Positions 1 to 10,867 of a DNA stretch of 10,867 nucleotides are shown here, one piece after another. The DNA comes from a virus (taxonomy: Duplodnaviria; Heunggongvirae; Uroviricota; Caudoviricetes). Within the stretch, counting starts at the first letter, position 1. The number at the start of each line of letters is the position of its first letter. Both the position numbers and the translations under genes were made by a program. Location: IMG/VR virus record IMGVR_UViG_2541047874_000002, positions 1 through 10,867 of that record; one strand, written 5' to 3'. Under the pieces are notes generated by a model. It was not told the origin of the DNA. It saw nothing but the letters and a program-made list of their open reading frames with translations, and searched no databases.

Positions 1-64
1 TTCCCCGTCGGGCTACGGTCATGGTTAATGCGGAAATACGGCGACGATGCAGCGCGGTATTTAA

Positions 65-84
65 TGTGCGACCACGGTCGCACA
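65..84. repeat. Copy 1 of dispersed near-palindrome TGTGCGACCACGGTCGCACA, about 20 nt downstream of the stop of the 103..414 minus-strand gene
   Basis: Read directly: 20-mer at 65-84; centre CCACGG on the plus strand. Same motif at 3105-3124, 7945-7963 and 10390-10407. Confidence 0.9.
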
Positions 85-102
85 CGAGAAACAAAGAGAT
101 TT

Positions 103-414
103 TTATGCTACAGAGGAACAAGCTGGCGGGTAATTCAGCGTAGTGAATACCGGCATCTCCATCTTGTATGCGTAATGATACTCAGCAGTTGCTCCAGCAG
201 ACGCTTTCCAGCCAGGAAGCATCAAAATAGCATCAGCACAACGAAGCATTGCAAAGCAAATATCCATGTATTCACGTTGTGTCAGACCATTAGGCAAAGT
301 GGCTGGATTCAAGACAGAGTGACCATGTCGTGACAAACGATCTGCCTCTTTATTAAAGGCGTCACGATTAAAGTTCTCATATCCAGTCATTGGCCCGGCA
401 ATATAAATTTTCAT
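103..414 (-). CDS. DUF4406 / nucleoside 2-deoxyribosyltransferase-like phage protein
   Basis: 103-aa ORF with N-terminal MKIYIAGPMTGY motif typical of this family (recalled, not searched); ATG at 414; follows the lysis cassette as a moron-like gene. Confidence 0.65.
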   Translation of the reverse strand: MKIYIAGPMTGYENFNRDAFNKEADRLSRHGHSVLNPATLPNGLTQREYMDICFAMLRCADAILMLPGWKASAGATAEYHYAYKMEMPVFTTLNYPPACSSVA

Positions 415-455
415 TCACTATCCAACAAATTGAGTTCGTTTTTGATACAGAGGGA

Positions 456-923
456 TTAATTCGGGCATTGCGTCTTGATGTATTCCTGAAGCGTTCTCAG
501 TGCTGTCTGGTCTCTGATGATTCCGTCCCGGATACCGAGAACGTTTCGTCCAGCAACTGGAGAGAGTTCGACGGTGGCATCATTGCCCATGCCGGAGGCG
601 CTGGAGGTTTCGGCTGAGGATGGCACAGAGCATTTTCCTTTGACGAGCACCCGACCACCATTATCAAGCTTGCGCCGAAGAGCATCATTTTCAGCTTTCG
701 CATCAGCCAACTCCTTCGTGTATTTTGCATCGAGCGCAGCAACATCACGCTGACGCTGCTGCATGTCAGCGATGGTGGCGGTCGCCTGCTTCAGCTCACT
801 GACTTTTTTATCACGCTGTTCTTTGTAGGCGATGGCGTTATCACGGTAATGATTAACAGCCCACGACAGGCAGACGATGATGCAGATAACCAGTGCGGAG
901 ATAATTGCGGTTACTCTGCTCAT
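456..923 (-). CDS. Rz: Rz i-spanin (lysis)
   Basis: Translation from the ATG at 923 ([30 protein letters not shown]...[19 protein letters not shown]) closely matches recalled phage lambda Rz; N-terminal transmembrane segment. The track ORF begins at a GTG at 935; the first ATG is preferred. Confidence 0.85.
497..703 (-). CDS. Rz1: Rz1 o-spanin lipoprotein, embedded out of frame inside Rz
   Basis: Embedded ORF in an alternate frame of Rz; ATG at 703 gives [21 protein letters not shown] with a lipobox (VVGC) and proline-rich segment [11 protein letters not shown], as in lambda Rz1. The annotated ORF is longer than lambda Rz1, so the exact extent is uncertain. Confidence 0.7.
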
Positions 924-1420
924 TGCTGCCCCCACAAACAGACTTCACGCTCAATCTCACGGCGAGTCATCAGCCCTTTCCATTGCTTGCCGCCAGCATA
1001 TGTCCAGCGACGTAGTTGATCACATGCACCTTTGATATCGCCCTGGTTGATTTTGCGAAGAAGTGTCGATGTACTGAAATTGCCTGCACCCACGTTGTAA
1101 ACGAACGAGTAAAGAGCACCACGCGTTGTTTCCGGTATATCGACTTTGATGTACGGGTTAATTTGTCTGGCGACAGTAGCAAGGTCTTTATTCAGGAGAG
1201 CTTTGCATTCTGCTTCGGTATACGTTTTACCGAGCATAATGTCTTTTCCTGTATGCCCGTAACATACAGTCCATACACCAACGATGTCTTTGTAGGGGTT
1301 ATGTCTCACACCTTCCAGACCATCGTTGCCGCTCGGACCAGAGATGAGCACAGATGCTATGGCAATAGCCCCGCCACCAATAGCAGTTGCGACAGCTTTG
1401 CGTAATGATGACTGCATCAT
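920..1420 (-). CDS. Phage lysozyme-type endolysin with N-terminal signal-anchor-release (SAR) segment
   Basis: 166 aa; N-terminal hydrophobic Gly/Ala-rich stretch ([20 protein letters not shown]) followed by a lysozyme-like domain; start ATG overlaps the holin stop (ATGA); lies between holin and Rz. Confidence 0.8.
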
Positions 1421-1689
1421 ATTTCCTTCGGTGCTCTCTTTCCCAATTCACCAATAACCATCGCCGTGGCGGAAATATTATTGGCATCAGTTTTATCCAA
1501 TATGTCCTGCAATATCTTCGTGCGCTTCATCTGCTCGCGTTTATTGAGCCGGTATGTAAGTACACCGAGGATAATGCTGAACGCGACACCGATAATGAAG
1601 CCCCAATCCTGCAATGACAGGCTGGCAAAGAACGCAGTAAGACCAGCACTACCATAAGATGCGCTGCTGTATCGTTCATCCATCTTCAT
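1417..1689 (-). CDS. Class II holin (pinholin-like) with MKM dual-start motif
   Basis: 90 aa, two predicted transmembrane segments ([32 protein letters not shown]), charged C-terminus, MKM start, GAGG Shine-Dalgarno upstream; directly upstream of the SAR endolysin. Confidence 0.75.
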
Positions 1690-1784
1690 ATCTCTTACCT
1701 CGCAATAGTTGCTGAGGTTTCGGCTTGGAAACTATACGGCGAGAAATAACCCCATCAAAAACGGCAGGGGAATATATTCTTCAG

Positions 1785-2861
1785 TTACTCAAATAACTTT
1801 TTCACTTCATCAACTGTCTGAAGATAACGTTCACCCTCAATCTCAATACCGATTGCCTGACGACCTAACTTCAGCGCGGCTTTAATAGTAGAGCCTGATC
1901 CCATAAAGAAATCGGCAACGATATCTCCGGGGCGGGAACTACTTTTTATAATATGTTCCATCATCGCTGCAGGTTTTTCACATGGGTGCTTGCCAGGATA
2001 ATATTGCACAGGAGGAAACTCCCATACATCGGTATAAGGTACATCAGCAGTAACATGAAATGGGCGGCGCAAATTTTCATACTGAGCCTTCAAATCATCA
2101 TACTGCTTCTTTACTTCCTCATAACGCAATTTCAGATCGCTATAACGCTTTTCATGTTCTGAATAATCAACATTAAAAGGATATGGACACGGGACACCGA
2201 GTGAATCTGCCTTCCTGCGAAATAATTCGCATAGTTTATTAAAATCACTTAATGATGGAAGCCGCCACTGCGAATAAGAAAACCAGTGCGAACACATCTG
2301 CTTTCCTGTTGCTGAATTAATGTCTGCGGCTGATATATCTAACTGACGGCGAGCCAGCGAAAAAGCATCAATTAGTGGAGAAAAAATATTTTTTCTTAAA
2401 TCTGCACATTTTGAAGCATAACCTGACTGACCTTTAGCATAACCTGACGCGCCGTAATGCTCTGCAAATAATATTCTTTCAGTGGCAGGAAAATAAGCCC
2501 TTAAACTTTCTTTATGACAACCGCGCCACATACCACTGGGTTTAGCCCAAATGATATGGTTCAGAACATTGAAACGGTCGCGAGTTAATAATTCAATTTT
2601 TGACGCAAGGCGAGAGCCGGTAAACATATACAGGCTGCCATTAGGGGCCAATATCCGCCAAAATTCTGCCAAAAATTCATCAATCCACCCCAAAAAGTCA
2701 GCATCGCTATCCCACTGGTTATCCCATGCGTTAGCCTTTACGCCGAAGTATGGTGGGTCTGTTGCAATCAAATTGACCGAGTTATCAGGGATGGTTTTGA
2801 TAAATTGCAGAGAATCTGCGCAAACGAGTTGCGCGCCATGAATATTAGTGGTTTTGAACAT
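1785..2861 (-). CDS. Beta-class amino-DNA methyltransferase (N6-adenine or N4-cytosine), orphan
   Basis: DPPY catalytic motif near the N-terminus and FxGxG-type AdoMet motif (DFFMGSGST) near the C-terminus. Start ambiguous: ATG at 2861 (MFKTT...) or ATG at 2906; neither has a strong Shine-Dalgarno. No restriction-endonuclease partner seen. Confidence 0.8.
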   Translation of the reverse strand: MFKTTNIHGAQLVCADSLQFIKTIPDNSVNLIATDPPYFGVKANAWDNQWDSDADFLGWIDEFLAEFWRILAPNGSLYMFTGSRLASKIELLTRDRFNVLNHIIWAKPSGMWRGCHKESLRAYFPATERILFAEHYGASGYAKGQSGYASKCADLRKNIFSPLIDAFSLARRQLDISAADINSATGKQMCSHWFSYSQWRLPSLSDFNKLCELFRRKADSLGVPCPYPFNVDYSEHEKRYSDLKLRYEEVKKQYDDLKAQYENLRRPFHVTADVPYTDVWEFPPVQYYPGKHPCEKPAAMMEHIIKSSSRPGDIVADFFMGSGSTIKAALKLGRQAIGIEIEGERYLQTVDEVKKLFE

Positions 2862-2953
2862 AGCTATTATTTTTTTGCCTGGGTAAGCTAACCCGGCGAT
2901 GCGCATCGCGGGTGGGCTTTAGGTTCAGCCTATAGCTCTGGCATGGGTTGACC

Positions 2954-2979
2954 GCAGGACAAGCTGCAACTTGTCCTGC
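2954..2979 (-). promoter_or_regulatory. Stable hairpin (10-bp stems, 6-nt loop) in the methyltransferase leader
   Basis: GCAGGACAAG-CTGCAA-CTTGTCCTGC inverted repeat read directly; not followed by a T-tract on the transcribed strand, so not a simple terminator. Confidence 0.4.
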
Positions 2980-2996
2980 GCCCACTTTTCAGGCAC

Positions 2997-3018
2997 AAAA
3001 AAACCGCCATAAAGGCGG
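2997..3018 (-). terminator. Rho-independent terminator (minus strand), candidate tR'-like late terminator
   Basis: Minus strand reads CCGCC-TTTAT-GGCGG followed by TTTTTTT; sits between the small-gene operon and the methyltransferase/lysis genes. Confidence 0.5.
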
Positions 3019-3057
3019 CTTGTTGGCTGTTGGGTACAAAAAACCCAACTTAACAAA

Positions 3058-3086
3058 ACAATAACTAAAAACCGTAATTTTGCCAA
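3058..3086 (-). promoter_or_regulatory. Candidate sigma70 promoter (minus strand): -35 TTGGCA, 16-17 bp spacer, -10 TATTGT
   Basis: Read on the reverse complement; lies about 40-60 nt upstream of the terminator at 2997-3018, resembling a PR'/tR' arrangement. Pattern match only. Confidence 0.3.
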
Positions 3087-3104
3087 GCTTTTTCGTTTTT
3101 GTGC

Positions 3105-3124
3105 TGTGCGACCGTGGTCGCACA
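3105..3124. repeat. Copy 2 of dispersed near-palindrome (TGTGCGACCGTGGTCGCACA), just downstream of the 3129..3356 gene stop and about 20 bp upstream of the candidate -35
   Basis: Read directly; opposite centre orientation to copy 1 (CCGTGG on plus); followed by AGTTTTT on the plus strand. Confidence 0.9.
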
Positions 3125-3128
3125 GTTT

Positions 3129-3356
3129 TTAGAAAGTTGCCTGCTTATATTCATCGGTCAAAGAATATCGACCAGACCCGCTACGCTTTGCAACCCCAAA
3201 ACAGATCATCTGTTCGATGATAAATTCAACGGCAGCTTGACTCAAAAAACAGGCTTCGCTTAACTCTTTCAGGGAAATGCGTGGGTATCCACGCATAACA
3301 CATTCCACACTCAGGGCCGCTTCAGTCATATTTCCACGAATTTCATTAATATTCAT
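3129..3356 (-). CDS. Hypothetical small protein (75 aa), possible winged-helix fold
   Basis: ORF with GAGAGG Shine-Dalgarno 4 nt upstream of ATG 3356; second gene of a two-gene operon; no family confidently recognised. Confidence 0.5.
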   Translation of the reverse strand: MNINEIRGNMTEAALSVECVMRGYPRISLKELSEACFLSQAAVEFIIEQMICFGVAKRSGSGRYSLTDEYKQATF

Positions 3357-3369
3357 AACGCCTCTCTAA

Positions 3370-3591
3370 TCAATCTTGAAACTGGAAATCAACATCAGCC
3401 ATAAAGCGGTTCAACTCAGCCAGTTTTGGCCCCATAGTCCCAACTAAGCGACCAGCCAGTCGGTCTGCCAGGTTGGTACTGTTGAAACCATATTCCTTTT
3501 CGAAACGTTCAACCTTCTGCCACAACTCATACAGTTCGTTAGCTATCTCCGCAACGTCGTCGCGCATTTTTTCGTTACCTTGATAATTCAT
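3370..3591 (-). CDS. Hypothetical small acidic protein (about 73 aa)
   Basis: Internal ATG at 3591 has a perfect GGAGG Shine-Dalgarno 5-6 nt upstream; the track ORF extends to 3609. No family recognised. Confidence 0.5.
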   Translation of the reverse strand: MNYQGNEKMRDDVAEIANELYELWQKVERFEKEYGFNSTNLADRLAGRLVGTMGPKLAELNRFMADVDFQFQD

Positions 3592-3680
3592 AATATCCTC
3601 CAAATTCATATAGTTAGTGGGTTATTGCCCCTCAATGACACGAACTGTAACTCTGCCAAACGAACACATCCAGTGTTATT

Positions 3681-3698
3681 TTTCACTTTTTAGTGAAA
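3681..3698. promoter_or_regulatory. 18-bp perfect inverted repeat TTTCACT-TTTT-AGTGAAA upstream of higB-like gene (candidate operator)
   Basis: Read directly; lies in the divergent promoter region between the 3591 operon and the toxin-antitoxin operon. Confidence 0.4.
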
Positions 3699-3756
3699 TT
3701 TTTAATTTGCGCTTTTTTCTTGTTTTGGTGTATTTTATGGCTATGGAGGCTATAAT

Positions 3757-4068
3757 ATGTTTAACGTGATAACCCACCCTGCAGCACTGGATGAACTGCT
3801 TGAACTACCAGATGATTTGCGAGGTCGCATGACCAGATTAATTGAGCGACTGGAGAAGGAAGGCAACAAACTGAAGATGCCCCATAGCCGTGTAATAGGT
3901 GGAGGGCTTTTTGAACTACGAGTAGGGGATAAAAACATCGCAAGAACGCTGTACGCCTACGCGACTGGTAACGAAATTTATCTATTGCATGCATTTGTAA
4001 AAAAGACACAGAAAACACCGGTGAAGGCTATCGAAATCGCCAGAACTCGCCTGAAGGAGATGAACTGA
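3757..4068 (+). CDS. higB: Type II toxin, RelE/ParE superfamily, HigB / Gp49-like
   Basis: 103 aa; C-terminal LYAYATGNEIYLLHAFVKKTQKTP motif characteristic of HigB/Gp49-like toxins (recalled); GGAGG Shine-Dalgarno; toxin-first order; stop overlaps the antitoxin start (TGATG). Confidence 0.8.
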   Translation: MFNVITHPAALDELLELPDDLRGRMTRLIERLEKEGNKLKMPHSRVIGGGLFELRVGDKNIARTLYAYATGNEIYLLHAFVKKTQKTPVKAIEIARTRLKEMN

Positions 4069-4355
4069 TGAAAGCAAAAGGCATCCCGTTTAACGAAGTA
4101 AAGGAAAAACTACTCAACACTCCAGAAGCTATCAAAGGATATGAAGAGGCCGATAAAGAACTGGAGATGGTCGAAATGTTATACGAAATGAGGGAAAGAG
4201 CAGGTTTAACGAAGTCAGCTCTGGCAGAACGAATGGGATTGCGCCCGTCCGCCATCAGCCGCCTGGAAAGCAATCCTTTAGGGGCAAGTATGAAAACTTT
4301 ATCAAAATATGCCCAGGCATGTGGCGCAACAATTAATATTAATGCCGTCTATTGA
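4068..4355 (+). CDS. higA: Type II antitoxin, HTH XRE-family (HigA-like)
   Basis: 95 aa with helix-turn-helix segment (LTKSALAERMGLRPSAISRLE); translationally coupled to the upstream toxin. Confidence 0.8.
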   Translation: MKAKGIPFNEVKEKLLNTPEAIKGYEEADKELEMVEMLYEMRERAGLTKSALAERMGLRPSAISRLESNPLGASMKTLSKYAQACGATININAVY

Positions 4356-4372
4356 TTAATCACTTTTCACTA

Positions 4373-4392
4373 CCCCGTCCAGAAGGGCGGGG
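4373..4392 (+). terminator. Hairpin between convergent genes (putative higBA terminator)
   Basis: CCCCGTCC-AGAA-GGGCGGGG, 8-bp stem with one G-U pair, 18 nt after the higA stop; weak U-tract, so termination efficiency is uncertain. Confidence 0.35.
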
Positions 4393-4398
4393 TGTGTA

Positions 4399-4617
4399 TC
4401 AATGATGTAAACACTCAACAGCAATCGCTTGTTGGCAATTCTGAGCAATCTCCCGCGACATACTAACAAGCCGTGAAATCTCGCCAAGATGCAAGCTAGC
4501 TTCGGGAGAAGCCAGAGCAACGTTAACCAGATCCAAAACGGCGTCGATGTCTTTTAGGTTTGATTCGAGTTCTTCAAGAGTTGATACAGATGCTTCAGTC
4601 ATTGAATCTAATACCAT
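4399..4617 (-). CDS. Small acidic helical protein (72 aa), putatively LexA/SOS-regulated; candidate antirepressor
   Basis: ORF begins 25 nt downstream of a near-consensus LexA box; no strong Shine-Dalgarno (alternative ATG at 4602); function inferred from context only. Confidence 0.5.
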   Translation of the reverse strand: MVLDSMTEASVSTLEELESNLKDIDAVLDLVNVALASPEASLHLGEISRLVSMSREIAQNCQQAIAVECLHH

Positions 4618-4639
4618 TTAATTAAAAAAGGTTATTTGA

Positions 4640-4659
4640 TACTGTATAAAATTACAGGG
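4640..4659. promoter_or_regulatory. LexA (SOS) box TACTGTATAAAATTACAGGG
   Basis: Matches the E. coli LexA consensus TACTGT-(AT)4-ACAGTA at 16 of 20 positions with the CTGT-N8-ACAG core intact; sits immediately upstream of the 4399..4617 gene in an AT-rich intergenic region. Confidence 0.6.
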
Positions 4660-4859
4660 TAAAACTCAAATTTTATAGCCAACTTTCAATGGATTAACTG
4701 GGTTAATAGTTTTGTAGTCAGATATTTATGTTCTCTTCCTACGCCTCACTCAACCACCTACAGAAGCCCATCATCACCATAAGAAAAGCTCTTTTCGCTT
4801 CGTTTGCGTATCATTTCAAAAAGCAATGCCTTTTTATCCATTTATCCCTCCGTGACCAG

Positions 4860-5186
4860 TCACGCTTTGAGCGCAAGTTTCAGCCTCGTGGTTGTAAGGT
4901 GGCATGAGCCTTCACCATCAAAAATGCATTCTGAAACAGGCATTTTTTGACCACATCGCGGACAAGCAGCAGATAGCTGCTTCTGCAACTCCTTATAGTT
5001 TTTCCTGATCAGAAGGCCGATAACTTCATTCTCTGAATATGGGACTCGCCCCGGTCTACGCAATACACAAATTTCCCCCAACATACGTAACTCGTCAGGT
5101 TCCAGAATCCAGTCCCGTCTTGATGTGCCTTCCTTCTTCAACCGTTCCCTGCGTCTCCTTTGCCGTTCTGCCGGTGTCAGCGCCAT
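4860..5186 (-). CDS. Hypothetical basic protein (108 aa) with C-terminal Cys4 zinc-ribbon-like motif
   Basis: AGGAGG Shine-Dalgarno 4 nt upstream of ATG 5186; Arg-rich N-terminus (ERQRRRRERLKKEG); C-terminal CPRCG...C...C. Possible regulator; family not recognised. Confidence 0.55.
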   Translation of the reverse strand: MALTPAERQRRRRERLKKEGTSRRDWILEPDELRMLGEICVLRRPGRVPYSENEVIGLLIRKNYKELQKQLSAACPRCGQKMPVSECIFDGEGSCHLTTTRLKLALKA

Positions 5187-5201
5187 AAATCCTCCTGAAA
5201 A

Positions 5202-5615
5202 TTACTTAACCCAATTAACTACACCGCCAGCGGCCACAACCGCCCTTTCACAGTCACGCTCATATCTCAAAGGTTGAAATACACCATCAATAAAATATTT
5301 ATCTCCACCAAACGCTGCAGGAAGTGAAACAGAAAACTGAATAGGATTATCATCCGGCACCACCGGCAGTGGCTGGGCTACATATAGTGACTGAACATAC
5401 CAGCCCTTTGATAACCAACTGTCAGCAATGTTTTTACTCCGGGTTATTGCCGGAATACCTAAGCCATTGTCTAAATGCAGCCATGCCACCGGTTCTGCTT
5501 CCAGCGAGGCTAACGCTATTTCATAAGCCCGGCGCTCAATATTGTCTCTCACGTCCAGGCTGCCTATGCGCTCTTTGATTTCTTTAATCAGTTCTTTGTC
5601 GGTAAAAGTGCTCAT
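5202..5615 (-). CDS. Hypothetical phage protein, paralog A (shares ALASLEAEPVAW and AQP-P motifs with 5617..6066)
   Basis: 137 aa; AAGGAG Shine-Dalgarno; start 2 nt after the stop of paralog B. Confidence 0.6.
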   Translation of the reverse strand: MSTFTDKELIKEIKERIGSLDVRDNIERRAYEIALASLEAEPVAWLHLDNGLGIPAITRSKNIADSWLSKGWYVQSLYVAQPLPVVPDDNPIQFSVSLPAAFGGDKYFIDGVFQPLRYERDCERAVVAAGGVVNWVK

Positions 5616-5616
5616 A

Positions 5617-6066
5617 TCAATCTCCTTTGGTACCGATATTTACAGCCTGGCAAGCCTCTTTGAGCACCCAGTCAACAGCGTCTTTCCATGCTCCGGTTTC
5701 GACTGGCGGATTTTCACGCTTTACCTGTTCATAGAAACGCACTGCTTTAATCAATCCTTCTGATGTCAGTGGCACAGGCTGAGCCGTGAATAACGCCTGA
5801 ATTTCATAGTTCGGCCTGTCGTTGCAATCCTCTTTTGTCGGTACATATTTCCAGTCACCAACCCACGGCTCCCCCTGAGAGTCCGTTACGCCTTTTTTCA
5901 TGTAGCGATATCGCCACGCTACCGGCTCTGCTTCCAACGATGCCAGCGCGATACGAAACACATCAGCAAGCAGACTGTCTAAAGATTGATTATCGTGCGC
6001 CGGGTCGCTCAGGAAGCCATTGATGAATGATTTAATCTTCGAGCTTTCTCTGGTAATAGTGGTCAT
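5617..6066 (-). CDS. Hypothetical phage protein, paralog B
   Basis: Start reassigned to ATG at 6066 (MTTITRESS...) with AAGGAGAG Shine-Dalgarno; the longer track ORF (to 6228) would overlap the upstream gene. Confidence 0.55.
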   Translation of the reverse strand: MTTITRESSKIKSFINGFLSDPAHDNQSLDSLLADVFRIALASLEAEPVAWRYRYMKKGVTDSQGEPWVGDWKYVPTKEDCNDRPNYEIQALFTAQPVPLTSEGLIKAVRFYEQVKRENPPVETGAWKDAVDWVLKEACQAVNIGTKGD

Positions 6067-6067
6067 A

Positions 6068-6694
6068 TCACTCTCCTTTGCGAAGCTCTGCGGCAAAGTC
6101 AGTCGCATGCTCACCGAGTAGTTTCCAGTTATCGCGTATATCAGATGCAAGCGCCTGTTCGGATTTTGAGTTACATCTCTGTGCAAACATCTCCAATCCC
6201 TGCGCCCGGACTTCAGCCAGGAAAGCATCGGTGGCTGGAATGGGCTTTTGTGGTGATATAGCTATGCGAATTGTCTCAAGGTCTGGATCCGTTTCCGCTG
6301 TTGGCACCTTGATATAACCCATCTGCACCCCATTCATGATGAACCTGCGGCGGTCCTCACACATCACCTTCAGTCTCGCATTCTCCGCCGCCAGCGCCGA
6401 AAACTTCTCGTGTGCCAACTTAACAGCCGAATCAGCCTGCTTAATTGACTCAATCGCTCTCTGGTGGTCTTCAGTCATCGCCGCTAAATTAGCCTCCAGT
6501 TCGGCTATGCGTTCGTTTAATGCATCTCGCTCATCCAACAGAGATAGCGTAATAATCGGTGAATGGCATTGGATATACCGCGTCAGTGTGCGCATATATC
6601 CATCAGCGTTCAAATCATCTTCAAGGCCTGTCCAGTTAATTTTACTGGCGCTCTCAGCTGCTTCACGCAGTACCTGATAATTGATTTCACTCAC
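6068..6694 (-). CDS. Ea22-like family protein (coiled-coil)
   Basis: N-terminus SEINYQVLREAAE and LLDERDALNE resemble recalled lambda Ea22 (MSEINSQALREAAE..., LLDERERNQQ); GTG start at 6694 with AGGAGG Shine-Dalgarno 6 nt upstream, overlapping the upstream stop (GTGA). Confidence 0.7.
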   Translation of the reverse strand: MSEINYQVLREAAESASKINWTGLEDDLNADGYMRTLTRYIQCHSPIITLSLLDERDALNERIAELEANLAAMTEDHQRAIESIKQADSAVKLAHEKFSALAAENARLKVMCEDRRRFIMNGVQMGYIKVPTAETDPDLETIRIAISPQKPIPATDAFLAEVRAQGLEMFAQRCNSKSEQALASDIRDNWKLLGEHATDFAAELRKGE

Positions 6695-7113
6695 AGTACT
6701 ACCTCCTGAAGATTTCCCTGATAAAACGCCAGCACACGCTGCATAACTTCGCTCTTCTGGCAATCGTGACAAATCATGTTCAAGCGCCTGTCGTAACGAC
6801 GTATTTCTCCGTCAGGTAATGACCAGATAAGGTCTGGATCAACCACTACCGATTTCTTCGGCTTTACTCTTGATAGTTTTTTACGGGCGTTTTGCCAGTC
6901 CTTGCGTGCTTGTGCAGACAGAAATATCCCGGAGCCAGAGATATACAAATCACCACTGGCAGCAAGCTCTCTTGATAAACGACTAACAGCACACCGGCTA
7001 ATACCAGTTTCATCCGCAAGTTGCCTAACCGTTCCTCGTCCATTCAGGCGCACGAGTTCCACAATTTGTTTATTCAGTTCTTCCCTCTGTTCTGGTGTAA
7101 AAGCCTTTGCCAT
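6691..7113 (-). CDS. Helix-turn-helix DNA-binding protein (140 aa), hypothetical regulator
   Basis: HTH-like segment (TVRQLADETGISRCAVSRLSRELA); C-terminal CHDC; start overlaps the exonuclease stop (TAATG). Confidence 0.55.
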   Translation of the reverse strand: MAKAFTPEQREELNKQIVELVRLNGRGTVRQLADETGISRCAVSRLSRELAASGDLYISGSGIFLSAQARKDWQNARKKLSRVKPKKSVVVDPDLIWSLPDGEIRRYDRRLNMICHDCQKSEVMQRVLAFYQGNLQEVVL

Positions 7114-7712
7114 TACGATTCTCCTTGCCCTTTTACAAGACGGGAGAAAATTGCGGATACATATTTAGCCTGATGAATAGCATCAGCCAGGGCATTGTGT
7201 CGTTCGCCATCAAATGGCATATCTTTTTTAGGATTAAAACCAATAAACTGACCAAGATTAACGATTGTTCTAACATCCTGATCATTAAAATATTCCCACG
7301 GACAGGCTAAGCCAACGCGCTCATAAACGCCGCGTAAAATTACATTATCGAACGTTGCTCCATTTCCCCATACTTTCAATGTTTTTAAATTACAAGCATG
7401 GCAAGTAATAAAGTGTGATAATTCAAAAAGTGCATCCTTAATATCAAGGGCATCATTAGTACAAATTGCGGCTCTGGCTTCCTTGCTCTGTCGCAACCAC
7501 CATAAAATGGTATCACCATCGGCAACACCACCATTTAACATCGAGCTTCTGAGATTCACTGGTACATAAAAAGTGGCACCTAATTCCTCACTTTCTGGAG
7601 AAAAAAACACTGCCCCGATAGAAACAATTGGAGCACATGTATTAGTACCCATTGTTTCAAGGTCAATCATTACATCAGACCGTTTCCTGTCGTAAATAAT
7701 CTGATTAGTCAC
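7113..7712 (-). CDS. DEDD-family 3'-5' exonuclease (DnaQ-like, phage-type)
   Basis: N-terminal MIDLETMGT Exo I motif and C-terminal H-x4-D (HNALADAIH) motif; GTG start at 7712 with GAGGAG Shine-Dalgarno (alternative ATG at 7670). Confidence 0.7.
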   Translation of the reverse strand: MTNQIIYDRKRSDVMIDLETMGTNTCAPIVSIGAVFFSPESEELGATFYVPVNLRSSMLNGGVADGDTILWWLRQSKEARAAICTNDALDIKDALFELSHFITCHACNLKTLKVWGNGATFDNVILRGVYERVGLACPWEYFNDQDVRTIVNLGQFIGFNPKKDMPFDGERHNALADAIHQAKYVSAIFSRLVKGQGES

Positions 7713-7735
7713 GAATAATTCTCCTCAATGTTTAT

Positions 7736-7939
7736 CTATGCCCAAAACTTCTGTTGATATGTTCTGGATGGTTTTGGCGCTCTTTCTGATTCAGGTAAAT
7801 GAACATAAACGCAATATCCATCACCTAAAAAATCAGAACGAACAACCAGAACTTTCTTACCACGCCGCCGATAAGTATCTGAAAGACGCTCTGCTTCATC
7901 ATGCGTCATCGGCCCCTGTTTAAATGGCGTTATTTTCAT
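7736..7939 (-). CDS. Hypothetical small protein (about 67 aa)
   Basis: First ATG at 7939; the track ORF starts at a GTG inside the palindrome at 7963; no family recognised. Confidence 0.4.
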   Translation of the reverse strand: MKITPFKQGPMTHDEAERLSDTYRRRGKKVLVVRSDFLGDGYCVYVHLPESERAPKPSRTYQQKFWA

Positions 7940-8240
7940 TTTCTTGTGCGACCACGGTCGCACCCTCTCTGATTTCCAAGTAACGCTTAATCCAAAGATT
8001 TTCTATATGCTTATTACCTGGCTGATTTGATAAATACCAATCGGCAATTACAGACTGCTTATTACTATCTGGTCGTGTCCTGTAACCACAAGTTGGACAC
8101 CAAATAACATATTCATTTCTTACCCCCGAATACCTTAATTCTGGCTTCGACGGTTTCCTGAACATAACTTGTTTACAAAGGCAGAATGGCACTTCCTGCC
8201 CGATGGCGTTTGATGATTTCACTGCGCTTCTCCGCCGCAT
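7920..8240 (-). CDS. Small zinc-ribbon protein, possibly Lar-family restriction-alleviation-like
   Basis: CxC...CPTCG cysteine pairs (FCLC, CPTCG) about 22 aa apart; ATG at 8240 overlaps the upstream gene by 68 nt, so the start is uncertain (alternative ATG 8165 would lose the first Cys pair). Confidence 0.4.
   Translation of the reverse strand: MRRRSAVKSSNAIGQEVPFCLCKQVMFRKPSKPELRYSGVRNEYVIWCPTCGYRTRPDSNKQSVIADWYLSNQPGNKHIENLWIKRYLEIREGATVVAQENENNAI
7945..7963. repeat. Copy 3 of dispersed near-palindrome (TGTGCGACCACGGTCGCAC), overlapping the 3' end of the Lar-like ORF and 6 nt upstream of the 7939 ATG
   Basis: Read directly; on the coding (minus) strand it is read in frame as A-T-V-V-A-Q. 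Confidence 0.9.
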
Positions 8241-8883
8241 TTAATAATGCGGTTCGATTTAAGCTCAGACATCGCGACTTAATTAAAAGCCAGCGTTCTT
8301 TATAATCTTGTCTCCAGCTATCAATAGATATATTCAGTAGAAAACTCAGATGCCTGTCCTGTTCTCTCTCATCAACTGCCTCAGCACACGTAAGTTCTGA
8401 TTTAACCTGTTGTGCCGCGTAATAAATCAATTTCCGCATGGCTTTTTTCGTGGAGGCCTTCATTTTTTTAAAGCCGCCCCCCGAATGAGCAACCAGAAAA
8501 TCAAGCCATAACCACTGACAAACAATCACATCATTGTTGTAATCAGGCTTGCATCCGTAGCAATAATAAAGCCAGGCTGATTCCTCGTTATTCAACTGAC
8601 CAATAGCCCTGCGCCAGCTGGCGCTCTGAAAATCAATATCAGTGAGCAACATTGATGATTGTTTAAATGTTTTCCCCTGATGGAATCTAACCGGCTCAGC
8701 AGGAACGGACACTTCGTATGAGTTATCATCCCCCACACTGATTGACCGGACTGGTTTATTGTTAAACCGTCCTGATCTACCGAGACGCATCTGCTCAAGC
8801 TGGACCTCCAGAATGCCACGCTGGCGATAATGAACATCAGCCAATGCCGTAGAGACGCAGCTGCGTATATACTCAAGCTCCAC
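8173..8883 (-). CDS. Hypothetical early protein (236 aa from GTG 8883; alternative ATG 8790)
   Basis: Long ORF immediately downstream of the cro-like gene; contains CYGC; function not recognisable by eye (replication or regulatory role possible). Confidence 0.5.
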   Translation of the reverse strand: MELEYIRSCVSTALADVHYRQRGILEVQLEQMRLGRSGRFNNKPVRSISVGDDNSYEVSVPAEPVRFHQGKTFKQSSMLLTDIDFQSASWRRAIGQLNNEESAWLYYCYGCKPDYNNDVIVCQWLWLDFLVAHSGGGFKKMKASTKKAMRKLIYYAAQQVKSELTCAEAVDEREQDRHLSFLLNISIDSWRQDYKERWLLIKSRCLSLNRTALLNAAEKRSEIIKRHRAGSAILPL

Positions 8884-9094
8884 GCTTACGACTCTCCTTA
8901 ATCGACTGCTTTACCCGCCGAGTTGTAAAGTCACTCTTCAGCTTATAAGCAGTACGAACTTCAATATCGCTTTGCCGCAATGAAGGAATCTCTCCAGCGG
9001 TTAACCATTGGTAAACAGCTCCGGGTGTTACACCTACCCCTGCCGCTGCTTTTTCTACACTGCCAAAATGGCGAATAAGTTCTTCTGGTTTCAT
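8873..9094 (-). CDS. cro: Cro-like repressor (P22 Cro-type HTH)
   Basis: MKPEELIRHFGSVEKAAAGVGVTPGAVYQW resembles recalled P22 Cro (DVIDHFGTQRAVAKALGISDAAVSQW); divergent from the CI-like gene across an operator-rich region. No obvious Shine-Dalgarno. Confidence 0.7.
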   Translation of the reverse strand: MKPEELIRHFGSVEKAAAGVGVTPGAVYQWLTAGEIPSLRQSDIEVRTAYKLKSDFTTRRVKQSIKESRKRGA

Positions 9095-9185
9095 GTTGTT
9101 ATTATAAACAATAAACAACAATTAAAGCCAGCTATAATAAATAAATTTTATAGCCAGCTATAAGAAGATCATTTATGATTACAGT
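9095..9185. promoter_or_regulatory. Immunity-region divergent promoter/operator segment
   Basis: Direct repeat of GCCAGCTATAA (9127-9137, 9153-9163); 16-bp near-palindrome TTATAGCCAGCTATAA (9148-9163) and half-related TTAAAGCCAGCTATAA (9122-9137); TTGTT...AACAA repeats at 9096-9120. The CI-like ATG has no Shine-Dalgarno, so a leaderless mRNA is possible. Confidence 0.55.
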
Positions 9186-9782
9186 ATGAAAACACGAGGC
9201 GAACGACTGAAAGCACGCCGTTTAGAGATGAAGCTGACGTTGCGAGAAGTTGCTGAGGCTGTCGATATCTCTATAGCAGGCGTCCAAAACTTAGAACGTG
9301 GCGACGTAATGCCGTCACTGGAGATAGGTATTGCCCTGGCTAAGTGCTTACGCAAGCCAGTGCATTGGGTGCTATATGGGACAGAATATGACCCTGATCG
9401 CATTCCTGTTATTGGCACAACTGAAAGTGGGCCGGATGAAGAGTGGAAGCCGGGACAGGTTCCAAATACTGAGCGATTCCTGCCATTCATCAGCCAGCGC
9501 AATACTGTGTATGCGTTAACTATCAGCAATCTTACGCAGGGAAACTATCAGCCAGGCGATTTTCTCCTGGTCGATTCTGCGCTGGAACTGGTCCCCGGCG
9601 AGGATGTTCTGGTTCGTGATACTGCAGGAAATATCACTATCCAGCGCCTGGCCCGTTTTGATGATGAAAATTACTATCTGGATGGAACAAACTCACAACG
9701 CGCCATCTTCAGGAAAAGCGATCTTGAATTTGTTCACCAAATAGTCGGAACGATCAAATCATTCATGGTTGAGGGTAGATGA
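9186..9782 (+). CDS. CI-like prophage repressor: N-terminal XRE HTH plus LexA/S24-like C-terminal domain with apparently degenerate catalytic Lys
   Basis: 198 aa; HTH (LTLREVAEAVDISIAGVQNLERG); C-terminal PGDFLLVD...NITIQRL aligns by eye with LexA GDLLAV...VTVKRL but has Gln where the catalytic Lys would be. Confidence 0.75.
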   Translation: MKTRGERLKARRLEMKLTLREVAEAVDISIAGVQNLERGDVMPSLEIGIALAKCLRKPVHWVLYGTEYDPDRIPVIGTTESGPDEEWKPGQVPNTERFLPFISQRNTVYALTISNLTQGNYQPGDFLLVDSALELVPGEDVLVRDTAGNITIQRLARFDDENYYLDGTNSQRAIFRKSDLEFVHQIVGTIKSFMVEGR

Positions 9783-9884
9783 CTTAATACGGGGTTTATT
9801 GTTTGCTGTAAATCTGGTTTAATGCAGGGCATATGTTCTGTGGGTTGACTCAGGTTACAGCAGCAGAAAAAAGACGAAAAAAAA

Positions 9885-9912
9885 CCCGAGTCGGCAAACT
9901 CGGGTCCTTTTC
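9885..9912 (+). terminator. Rho-independent terminator after the CI-like gene
   Basis: CCCGAG-TCGGCAAA-CTCGGG hairpin followed by TCCTTTTC and preceded by an A-tract (possibly bidirectional). Confidence 0.5.
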
Positions 9913-10026
9913 AGGAAGCAGCCACAACAACGCGACAGATTCCGTCAATTCAAGATGCGTTTATTGTGGCTGCTCCTGCGGATTTTTTCAACCCGAAAAA
10001 ACATAATTCGCATGGAATGGCTAAAA

Positions 10027-10866
10027 AATGACATTAAACGATTTCTATGCGGATCGCTTTGGCAGCGATCCGTTCTCGCTAATTGAAGCAGCACGGGATG
10101 AACTAACCGAGCTGGCACAGATGGCTGGTATCAACTGGCCTGCCTGTTCCGACAACATCCAACTCAACCCTCGCGGGGGGGTTGAGCGTTACTCTTCATA
10201 CAATAAAACATCTCCAGAAGCTCTCGAAAAGAGCCTGAAAGGACGCGTAGAAATTTACTCCAGGCTGGAACACAGCAAAGGGATTGATTACCCGTTCATT
10301 AACTTCGTCCATAAAGGCAGCGATGCTGGCTCATGGAGCGGTTTCTCCTTCCTGTTTTCTGAATATCGCCGTGAGCAACAACGGAATAATGCGACCGTGG
10401 TCGCACAACCGGAAGAAGAACGGGAAAGAATAGAACGTCAGGCCGAAGCACGTCGTCGCCGTGAAGAACAAAAACGAATTAATGACCTGAAAAACAACCA
10501 AATGGACCATGAACGTTTGCTGGGATGGCTGGCATTCCACAGCGCGTGGGAACATGCTCAGGCTGAAGACGGCTCATGGCCATATGCGATTAAAAAAGGT
10601 ATTCGTGACGTTTTTAGTTCATGTGATGTGCGTCGCGTGACCAGTCACGACAGTGCGAAATGGAGCCGGGGGCCAACCACATATATGGCTATCCCTCTGG
10701 CTCACCTGGACGGTCGTTATGATGGTCGTATTGTGGGTTGGCAGCGAATCGACAAACAAGGTGGGAAATACCAGACCAGCGCAGTAACCAGCGGCGATTT
10801 CGTCGGTGCCTGCTTTGTTATCGGTGAGCTGAAAGGGGCGCAAAACATCGCTGTTACAGAAGGTTT
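10027..10866 (+). CDS. Primase-like replication protein, N-terminal part (truncated by window end)
   Basis: Frame open from ATG 10027 to the window end (280 codons, verified codon by codon); charged linker EEERERIERQAEARRRREEQKR; ends in IAVTEGF, resembling the start of a TOPRIM acidic motif. Not in the ORF track because it has no stop. Confidence 0.5.
10390..10407. repeat. Copy 4 of dispersed near-palindrome (TGCGACCGTGGTCGCACA) inside the primase-like coding sequence
   Basis: Read directly; encodes A-T-V-V-A-Q in the plus frame, just before the charged linker. Confidence 0.9.
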
Positions 10867-10867
10867 T

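Follow-up and report, generated by a model that had tools for sequence, protein, structure and literature searches.

In this study we analysed a 10,867-nucleotide stretch of viral DNA (Caudoviricetes; IMG/VR record IMGVR_UViG_2541047874_000002, positions 1 to 10,867), referred to below as the window, in which a 16-bp near-palindrome occurs four times. We propose, with a probability of about 0.93, that these four copies are dispersed parS-type centromere sites of a Sop partition system, i.e. counterparts of the sites IR1-IR4 of the linear phage-plasmid N15. The proposal is based on a core identical to that of the N15 sites, on matching positions, on conserved flanks and on the N15-type SopB protein encoded by nearly identical replicons. 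The feature is thus an already described N15-type centromere residing in a close relative of N15, with two lineage-specific details, namely a fifth site and uniform AC/GT centres.

A search of the whole window with the pattern TGCGACCNNGGTCGCA returned four exact matches to TGCGACC-NN-GGTCGCA (67-82, 3107-3122, 7947-7962 and 10390-10405), which a repeat finder extended to 20 nt (65-84 and 3105-3124, with the outer arms TGTGCGACC..GGTCGCACA), 19 nt (7945-7963) and 18 nt (10390-10407). These searches reproduce the copies and extended coordinates of the original prediction, made from the sequence without database searches. Its statement that their number is far beyond chance is also confirmed: dinucleotide-preserving shuffles of the window give a mean of 0.30 matches even with up to three mismatches allowed. 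The sole further match to TGCGACCNNGGTCGCA (9387-9402) needs three mismatches and is probably due to chance. The four copies are:

65..84: copy 1, TGTGCGACCACGGTCGCACA, 20 bp beyond the stop codon of a DUF4406 gene (open reading frame (ORF) 103..414, minus strand); putative SopB-binding centromere site
3105..3124: copy 2, TGTGCGACCGTGGTCGCACA, 6 bp beyond the stop codon of a gp51-like ORF of 75 amino acids (aa) (3129..3356, minus strand); predicted IR3 orthologue
7945..7963: copy 3, TGTGCGACCACGGTCGCAC, in the last codons of a 106-aa zinc-ribbon ORF (7920..8240, minus strand), downstream of the antiterminator gene Q; predicted IR2 orthologue
10390..10407: copy 4, TGCGACCGTGGTCGCACA, inside repA, in the codons for A-T-V-V-A; predicted IR1 orthologue

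Copy 2 is additionally located 20 bp upstream of a -35-like TTGGCA (3086..3081, minus strand), while copy 3 lies about 210 bp downstream of the Q stop codon and 8 bp upstream of the ATG (7939) of the next small gene. Copy 4 is read as N-A-T-V-V-A-Q in RepA (frame from 10028), where it is followed by a charged stretch, and copy 3 as A-T-V-V-A-Q in the 106-aa ORF. The placements proposed originally (after the DUF4406 stop codon, after the stop codon at 3129 and near a candidate -35, at the start of a small gene, and within a primase-like ORF before a charged linker) therefore hold, and the reading frame said to be shared by copies 3 and 4 was recovered from the ORF translations. An A-T-x-V-A frame of intragenic sites is also found in N15 (GATSVAR); the common frame of the two intragenic sites may reflect chance (one in three, with two cases) or a preference for the least disruptive frame.

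The Sop centromere system of N15 was reportedly described in 1999 (Ravin and Lane). It consists of four dispersed SopB-binding inverted repeats, IR1-IR4 (GTGCGACCNNGGTCGCAC), which have been listed together with their flanks and which share GTGCGACC-NN-GGTCGCAC with the centres AC, TC, AT and AC (PMC7205306, Table 4); N15 SopB forms foci on an array of four IR sites (PMC7205306). In a motif search the N15 genome yielded four positions (33480, 35931, 41125 and 45562), as did the linear prophage phiKO2 of Klebsiella oxytoca (NC_005857; 37906, 40346, 45385 and 48619), whose four sites each carry the label "putative plasmid partitioning site" in the RefSeq record. Their contexts are as follows:

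N15, 33480: in repA (gene 37), with one mismatch
N15, 35931: between Q and gene 41
N15, 41125: 5 bp after gene 51 (which ends at 41119), about 22 bp upstream of an annotated -35 (41162)
N15, 45562 (45562-45577): after gene 58
phiKO2, annotated 37905-37922: in the replicase gene, gp35
phiKO2, 40346: after Q
phiKO2, misc_feature 45384-45401: adjoining a "putative late promoter"
phiKO2, 48618-48635: after gp58, nucleoside 2-deoxyribosyltransferase

The window, N15 and phiKO2 therefore have the same four site contexts, i.e. in repA, after Q, before the late promoter and beyond the lysis genes. In an alignment that included 25 bp of flank on each side, flank conservation was site-specific in three of the four classes (the repA, Q-downstream and late-promoter sites). 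The flank of copy 2, AAAACGAAAAAG(C/G)TTGGC, is common to N15 and phiKO2, and both flanks of copy 3 are conserved with N15 35931 and phiKO2 40346 (the product of the 106-aa ORF reads ...KRYLEIREGATVVAQ in the window and ...KRYLEIKEGATSVAR in N15). The flank of copy 4, TTCTTCTTCCGG(T/C)TG...ATTCCGTTG, is shared with N15 33480 and phiKO2 37905-37922 and is also carried by the IR1 oligonucleotide (PMC7205306, Table 4). Because the flanks are conserved site by site, sequence comparison identifies copies 4, 3 and 2 as the orthologues of IR1, IR2 and IR3, respectively.

The likeness to N15 thus comprises the identical core (G)TGCGACC-NN-GGTCGCA(C) (the third base of either arm being C in all four exact copies, as against G in F sopC), single sites dispersed over four shared positions, the conserved flanks of IR1-IR3, and a cognate SopA/SopB operon that adjoins telRL in close relatives of the window. 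There are also differences. Identity of the element to N15 is about 75%, with 27% of the window aligned; the centres in the window are all AC/GT, whereas those of N15 are AC, TC, AT and AC; IR1 has a mismatch in one arm (AGCGACC), while copy 4 lacks a flanking G instead; and the lineage of the window has a fifth site. With phiKO2 the window shares four TGCGACCACGGTCGCA sites in the same contexts, including the gp58/DUF4406-like gene, and phiKO2 differs in its virion module, its larger genome and in having AC at all centres. The phiKO2 sites were reportedly described by Casjens et al. (2004). The N15 record (AF064539) annotates none of the four centromere sites (0/4) and labels the IR4 palindrome (45560-45584) as "putative rho-indep. 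transcription terminator", which is best read as a mis-annotated palindrome.

The centre of the motif deserves a separate comment. On the plus strand the central dinucleotides of copies 1 to 4 are AC, GT, AC and GT, so that the asymmetric 2-bp centre noted originally is real; the polarity ascribed to it is not conserved, since the orthologous sites of N15 and phiKO2 have AC, TC or AT and do not keep the orientation. As the alignment with N15 and phiKO2 revealed variation of both centre sequence and orientation among orthologous sites, we assign no function to the centre polarity.

The nature of the element was assessed by comparison with complete replicons. A megablast search of complete Escherichia coli genomes identified 16 E. 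coli records covering at least 80% of the window. The 15 listed E. coli relatives are replicons of 36-75 kb, 97-98% identical to it, that are annotated with a "plasmid replication protein, CyRepA1 family", antiterminator Q and an XRE repressor. One of them, p19KM1803_4 (45.9 kb), encodes a protelomerase, sopA, a ParB-family partition gene and a lambda-like virion module. The record of phage PhiR46_1 (46.3 kb, 97.5% identical) shows the linear prophage, which is bounded by telL and telR and has ParA/ParB at one terminus. YDC107_1 (98.4% identical) has been assigned to Ravinvirus, the genus to which N15 belongs. N15 and phiKO2 themselves, when aligned by megablast, are about 75% identical to the window in its repA-cB-cro-Q part. 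Taking into account the gene content of the relatives, their telomere ends and classification, and the N15/phiKO2 alignment, the window represents, as judged from homology, the right (repA-to-lysis) arm of a linear E. coli phage-plasmid related to N15, in an orientation opposite to that of the N15 map. The protelomerase and telRL features lie outside the window and are found in these relatives (the protelomerase of p19KM1803_4, telL/telR of PhiR46_1, the Ravinvirus assignment of YDC107_1).

The YDC107_1 record (CP025712.1) is mirror-duplicated around the protelomerase/telomere (34650-46701), with telN, the anti-repressor genes and repA present twice in inverted order, and it is without sopAB. 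The duplication looks like assembly read-through of the hairpin telomere rather than biology.

The predicted binding protein is SopB, whose gene would lie about 10-30 kb away, outside the window. The SopB of p19KM1803_4 is 74% identical to that of N15 and matches the solved structure of the F SopB DNA-binding domain (3mky, E = 6e-39). In N15 SopB, residues 179-200 hold all specificity determinants (PMC2910045), and this segment reads GNVKSLAEAEGVDRNIISRCIN in p19KM1803_4 and GNVKALAEAEGIDRNIVNRCMN in N15. Around the conserved arginine of the recognition helix both proteins have D-R-N, while F SopB has S-R-K, at positions that have been named as likely discriminators of base 4 (PMC2910045). The recognition helix is accordingly, by its sequence, of the N15 type and not of the F type. 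A cognate sopA-sopB pair with an N15-type helix-turn-helix (HTH) segment is therefore present in this 97-98% identical relative, and PhiR46_1 has ParA/ParB. The N-terminal part of the protein also keeps the arginine-rich ParB box (DGSRRRKAAI). CTP-dependent clamp loading has been shown for F ParB (PMC12477601), and the presence of the box is consistent with the same behaviour by analogy. The original prediction was right about the kind of site, i.e. one for a dimeric DNA-binding protein encoded by the element; the candidates it named (the zinc-ribbon, HTH, 75-aa, CI-like and Cro-like proteins) are replaced by SopB.

It had also been stated that the motif does not match parS, which is wrong: it is the Sop-type parS of N15, one base per arm away from F sopC. 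The sopC site of F is TGGGACCACGGTCCCA (PMC3597684), from which the N15 site departs by a single nucleotide in each half-site (PMC2910045). In both cases a SopB dimer recognizes a 16-bp inverted repeat by means of its HTH motifs. The F centromere consists of 10-12 copies of a 43-bp repeat, clustered in tandem beside sopAB, in contrast to the single sites of the window, which lie scattered across about 10 kb and at a distance from sopAB. F SopB functions on its own sopC only and not with the N15 sites, whereas N15 SopB works on sopC too (PMC7205306). Neither F-type TGGGACC..GGTCCCA sites nor a tandem array was found in the window, and F-type sopC identity was rejected on these grounds. 

Chromosomal parS and the KorB OB sites are likewise 16-bp palindromes for ParB-family proteins, dispersed over the replicon, and KorB sites also regulate transcription. 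Chromosomal parS (TGTTNCACGTGAAACA) and OB of RK2 differ from the motif in sequence and belong to other ParB subfamilies. Dispersed centromeres have been mentioned elsewhere (PMC3235114, PMC5016525).

Whole relatives contain exactly five perfect sites, as opposed to four in N15 and phiKO2; the stretch from repA to the gene that follows DUF4406 holds all five, and the rest of the roughly 46 kb has none. Relative to copy 1, the fifth is 220 bp further left, which places it about 150 bp beyond the window edge (5494-5509 in p19KM1803_4, 18014-18029 in locus L244). The same 220-bp site pair was observed in three IMG/VR loci (L005, L012 and L016).

An exact scan of IMG/VR with GTGCGACCNNGGTCGCAC identified at least 119 loci, many with two to four sites; among the matches listed, 115 of 183 sixteen-mers have, no more than 400 bp away, a homologue of DUF4406, the 106-aa ORF, RepA or the gp51-like protein. 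The same scan of GTDB (one genome per species) gave at least 120 loci, nearly all of them single sites in unrelated, mostly GC-rich genomes; for 16 specified bases, chance alone would give roughly 140 matches over 596 Gb. Among the GTDB matches listed, 121 of 122 sites have no N15-like neighbour, the exception being a 46-kb Pseudocitrobacter contig. Since, among the matches listed, most IMG/VR sites adjoin the same genes and nearly all GTDB sites are isolated singletons, the motif is specific to the N15-like element family and is not a host repeat.

Three points weigh against the Sop centromere assignment. Firstly, sopAB and telN are absent from the 10.9-kb window, and the link to a cognate SopB is made via the 97-98% identical relatives. 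Secondly, the flanks of copy 1 are not homologous to those of N15 IR4 or of the phiKO2 site, and it is equated with them by position only. Thirdly, SopB binding and partition at these sites are carried over from N15 and F by analogy.

If the assignment is correct, a SopB dimer would bind each 16-bp inverted repeat via its two HTH motifs, as established for N15 and F. It would then load as a CTP-dependent clamp and recruit hundreds more SopB molecules into a partition complex, as established for F, and the nucleoid ATPase SopA would move such complexes apart, so that each daughter cell receives the low-copy prophage (established for N15 and F). By analogy, any one site would be enough for this element, with several being additive. 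In the studies of Grigoriev and Lobocka (2001) and Ravin et al. (2008), single N15 sites reportedly suffice for stabilization, and Sop is said to facilitate late gene expression. The latter role would fit the conserved placement of sites near Q and 20 bp upstream of the late promoter, and SopB occupying the sites at Q, the late promoter and repA may likewise influence the late genes of this element, as is reported for N15. The neighbouring features in question are:

3058..3086, minus strand: late-promoter-like TTGGCA-17-TATTGT (consensus scan, 9/12 matches), immediately downstream of copy 2 in the direction of transcription
3001..3021, minus strand: terminator-like hairpin with a T-run, which follows the late promoter; a terminator is annotated at the equivalent location in both N15 and phiKO2
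8173..8883, minus strand: late antiterminator Q (Pfam Phage_antiter_Q, E = 4e-84)
10028..10867, plus strand: N-terminal 280 codons of RepA, an N15-type primase/helicase replication protein, whose ORF runs off the window; contains copy 4

The promoter-like sequence is the counterpart of the annotated late promoter of N15 and phiKO2, with its -35 and -10 equally distant from the site. The hairpin has a tR'-like position and is a possible target of Q antitermination. RepA was identified by comparison with the "plasmid replication protein, CyRepA1 family" of p19KM1803_4 (15657..19652) and with N15 gene 37. A late-promoter element of the P2 Ogr/Delta type (TGT-N12-ACA) was rejected, as the motif is spaced TGT-N14-ACA and nothing implicates an activator like Ogr.

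The 106-aa zinc-ribbon ORF (FCLC...CPTCGY; 7920-8240, minus strand) is conserved, with a counterpart in N15 (35653-35973, plus strand). It overlaps the 3' end of Q by 68 nt and carries IR2 near its C-terminus. It is unannotated in N15 AF064539 and in phiKO2 and is named "orf QD1" in YDC107_1. The label "Lar-like" proposed originally corresponds to an existing match to Pfam Lar_restr_allev, and is unproven, since the score (21.1 bits) falls under the gathering cut-off of 28.6.

A wider version of the Sop centromere assignment, which we regard as doubtful, holds that the five sites, including the 220-bp pair, nucleate SopB complexes that would regulate or insulate repA, Q-dependent late transcription and the lysis module, and that the sites occasionally serve as exchange points. 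With an effect of Sop on late expression reportedly known from N15 (Ravin et al. 2008, cited in PMC11652158), only the fifth site and any recombination role would be new.

Several other explanations of the motif were considered, among which a methyltransferase or restriction target is superfluous in view of the match to N15 IR1-IR4. It is very improbable that the sites are operators at which another window-encoded protein (for example the DUF977 HTH protein, a zinc-ribbon protein or the gp51-like winged-HTH protein of 75 aa) controls late or replication genes and that they have nothing to do with partition. Such a role would suit the location of copy 2, which is 20 bp upstream of the late-promoter-like site and directly follows a gene with weak winged-HTH matches below the Pfam cut-offs, as well as those of copies 3 and 4, which adjoin Q and sit inside repA. 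A regulatory side-effect of SopB binding explains this placement equally well, however, and none of the window proteins is linked to the motif by any evidence, whereas the identical N15 sequence is an experimentally used SopB centromere, with foci on the 4xIR array (PMC7205306), and specificity has been mapped to the SopB HTH (PMC2910045).

We attach just as little probability to the proposal, made also in the original prediction, that the sites are boundary sequences, i.e. short homologies for module exchange among mosaic phages. The sites do fall between functional modules, and the N15 megablast match begins at 7903, about 45 bp from copy 3. We compared the blastn homology endpoints of the window against about 240 fetched loci with the site positions, a rough test, in which the loci are non-independent and were selected for the motif. 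Endpoints within 60-100 bp of a site made up 9-13%, as compared with 4-7% under a uniform model, but within 30 bp the proportion was 0.7% against an expected 2.2%, and the main breakpoint clusters (0-1000 and 4250-5250) are away from the sites. Moreover, three of the four sites keep their flanks on both sides across N15, phiKO2 and the window, and 16-20 bp of homology is short for RecA-type exchange. The boundary role is therefore not supported, and no copy resembles a mosaic breakpoint.

Still less credible is the idea that the sites are RNA or DNA hairpins acting as terminators or processing signals. The sequence can form a GC-rich stem of 7-9 bp, and the N15 label at the IR4 region (45560-45584) points in this direction. 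A scan for terminators, defined as a GC-rich hairpin with a loop of 3-8 nt followed by a T-run on the transcribed strand, however, gave nine terminator-like sites in the window, none of which coincides with a copy of the motif. The stem is followed by A-rich or mixed sequence and by no T-run on either strand, two copies are inside coding sequence, and the loop would be only 2-4 nt.

Finally, a host-wide repeat (REP/BIME-like) or an assembly or cloning artefact, the two findings that the original prediction considered fatal to it, has a negligible probability: no supporting point was found, the sites are placed identically in independent complete records, which stem from several hosts and countries, tandem arrays of the motif are absent, and the genome-wide GTDB scan returned isolated singletons outside N15-like contigs among the matches listed, E. 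coli chromosomes not having been scanned exhaustively.

The value of assigning these repeats to the Sop centromere is one of annotation, and no new biological question is opened by it. Such 16-bp sites are seldom marked (among the records examined, that of phiKO2 alone does so) and are easily mistaken for terminators, as happened with IR4 in the N15 record, or for novel operators. Read as an N15-type parS, TGCGACCNNGGTCGCA provides a quick diagnostic for N15-like telomere phage-plasmids in contigs without telN or sopAB. The parS identity also explains the survival of the motif within coding sequence.

Several further features of the window were observed. A RelE/ParE-family toxin and an HTH antitoxin (3757-4068 and 4068-4355, both plus strand; annotated at 9404-10002 in p19KM1803_4) are the counterpart of N15 genes 49/48 and represent a second plasmid-maintenance function in the same arm. 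The segment at about 5350-6700 diverges from the closest relatives (megablast gaps between about 5359 and 6691) and holds two adjacent minus-strand ORFs (5202-5615 and 5617-6228) that share stretches of 80-90% identity (repeats D5 and D8), which points to tandem paralogues occupying a variable cargo slot. Between the cro-like gene and the CB-like repressor gene there are two direct repeats of 26 bp (9110-9161), both containing AGCCAGCTATA; since N15 annotates CB operators at that place, these repeats are probably immunity operators.

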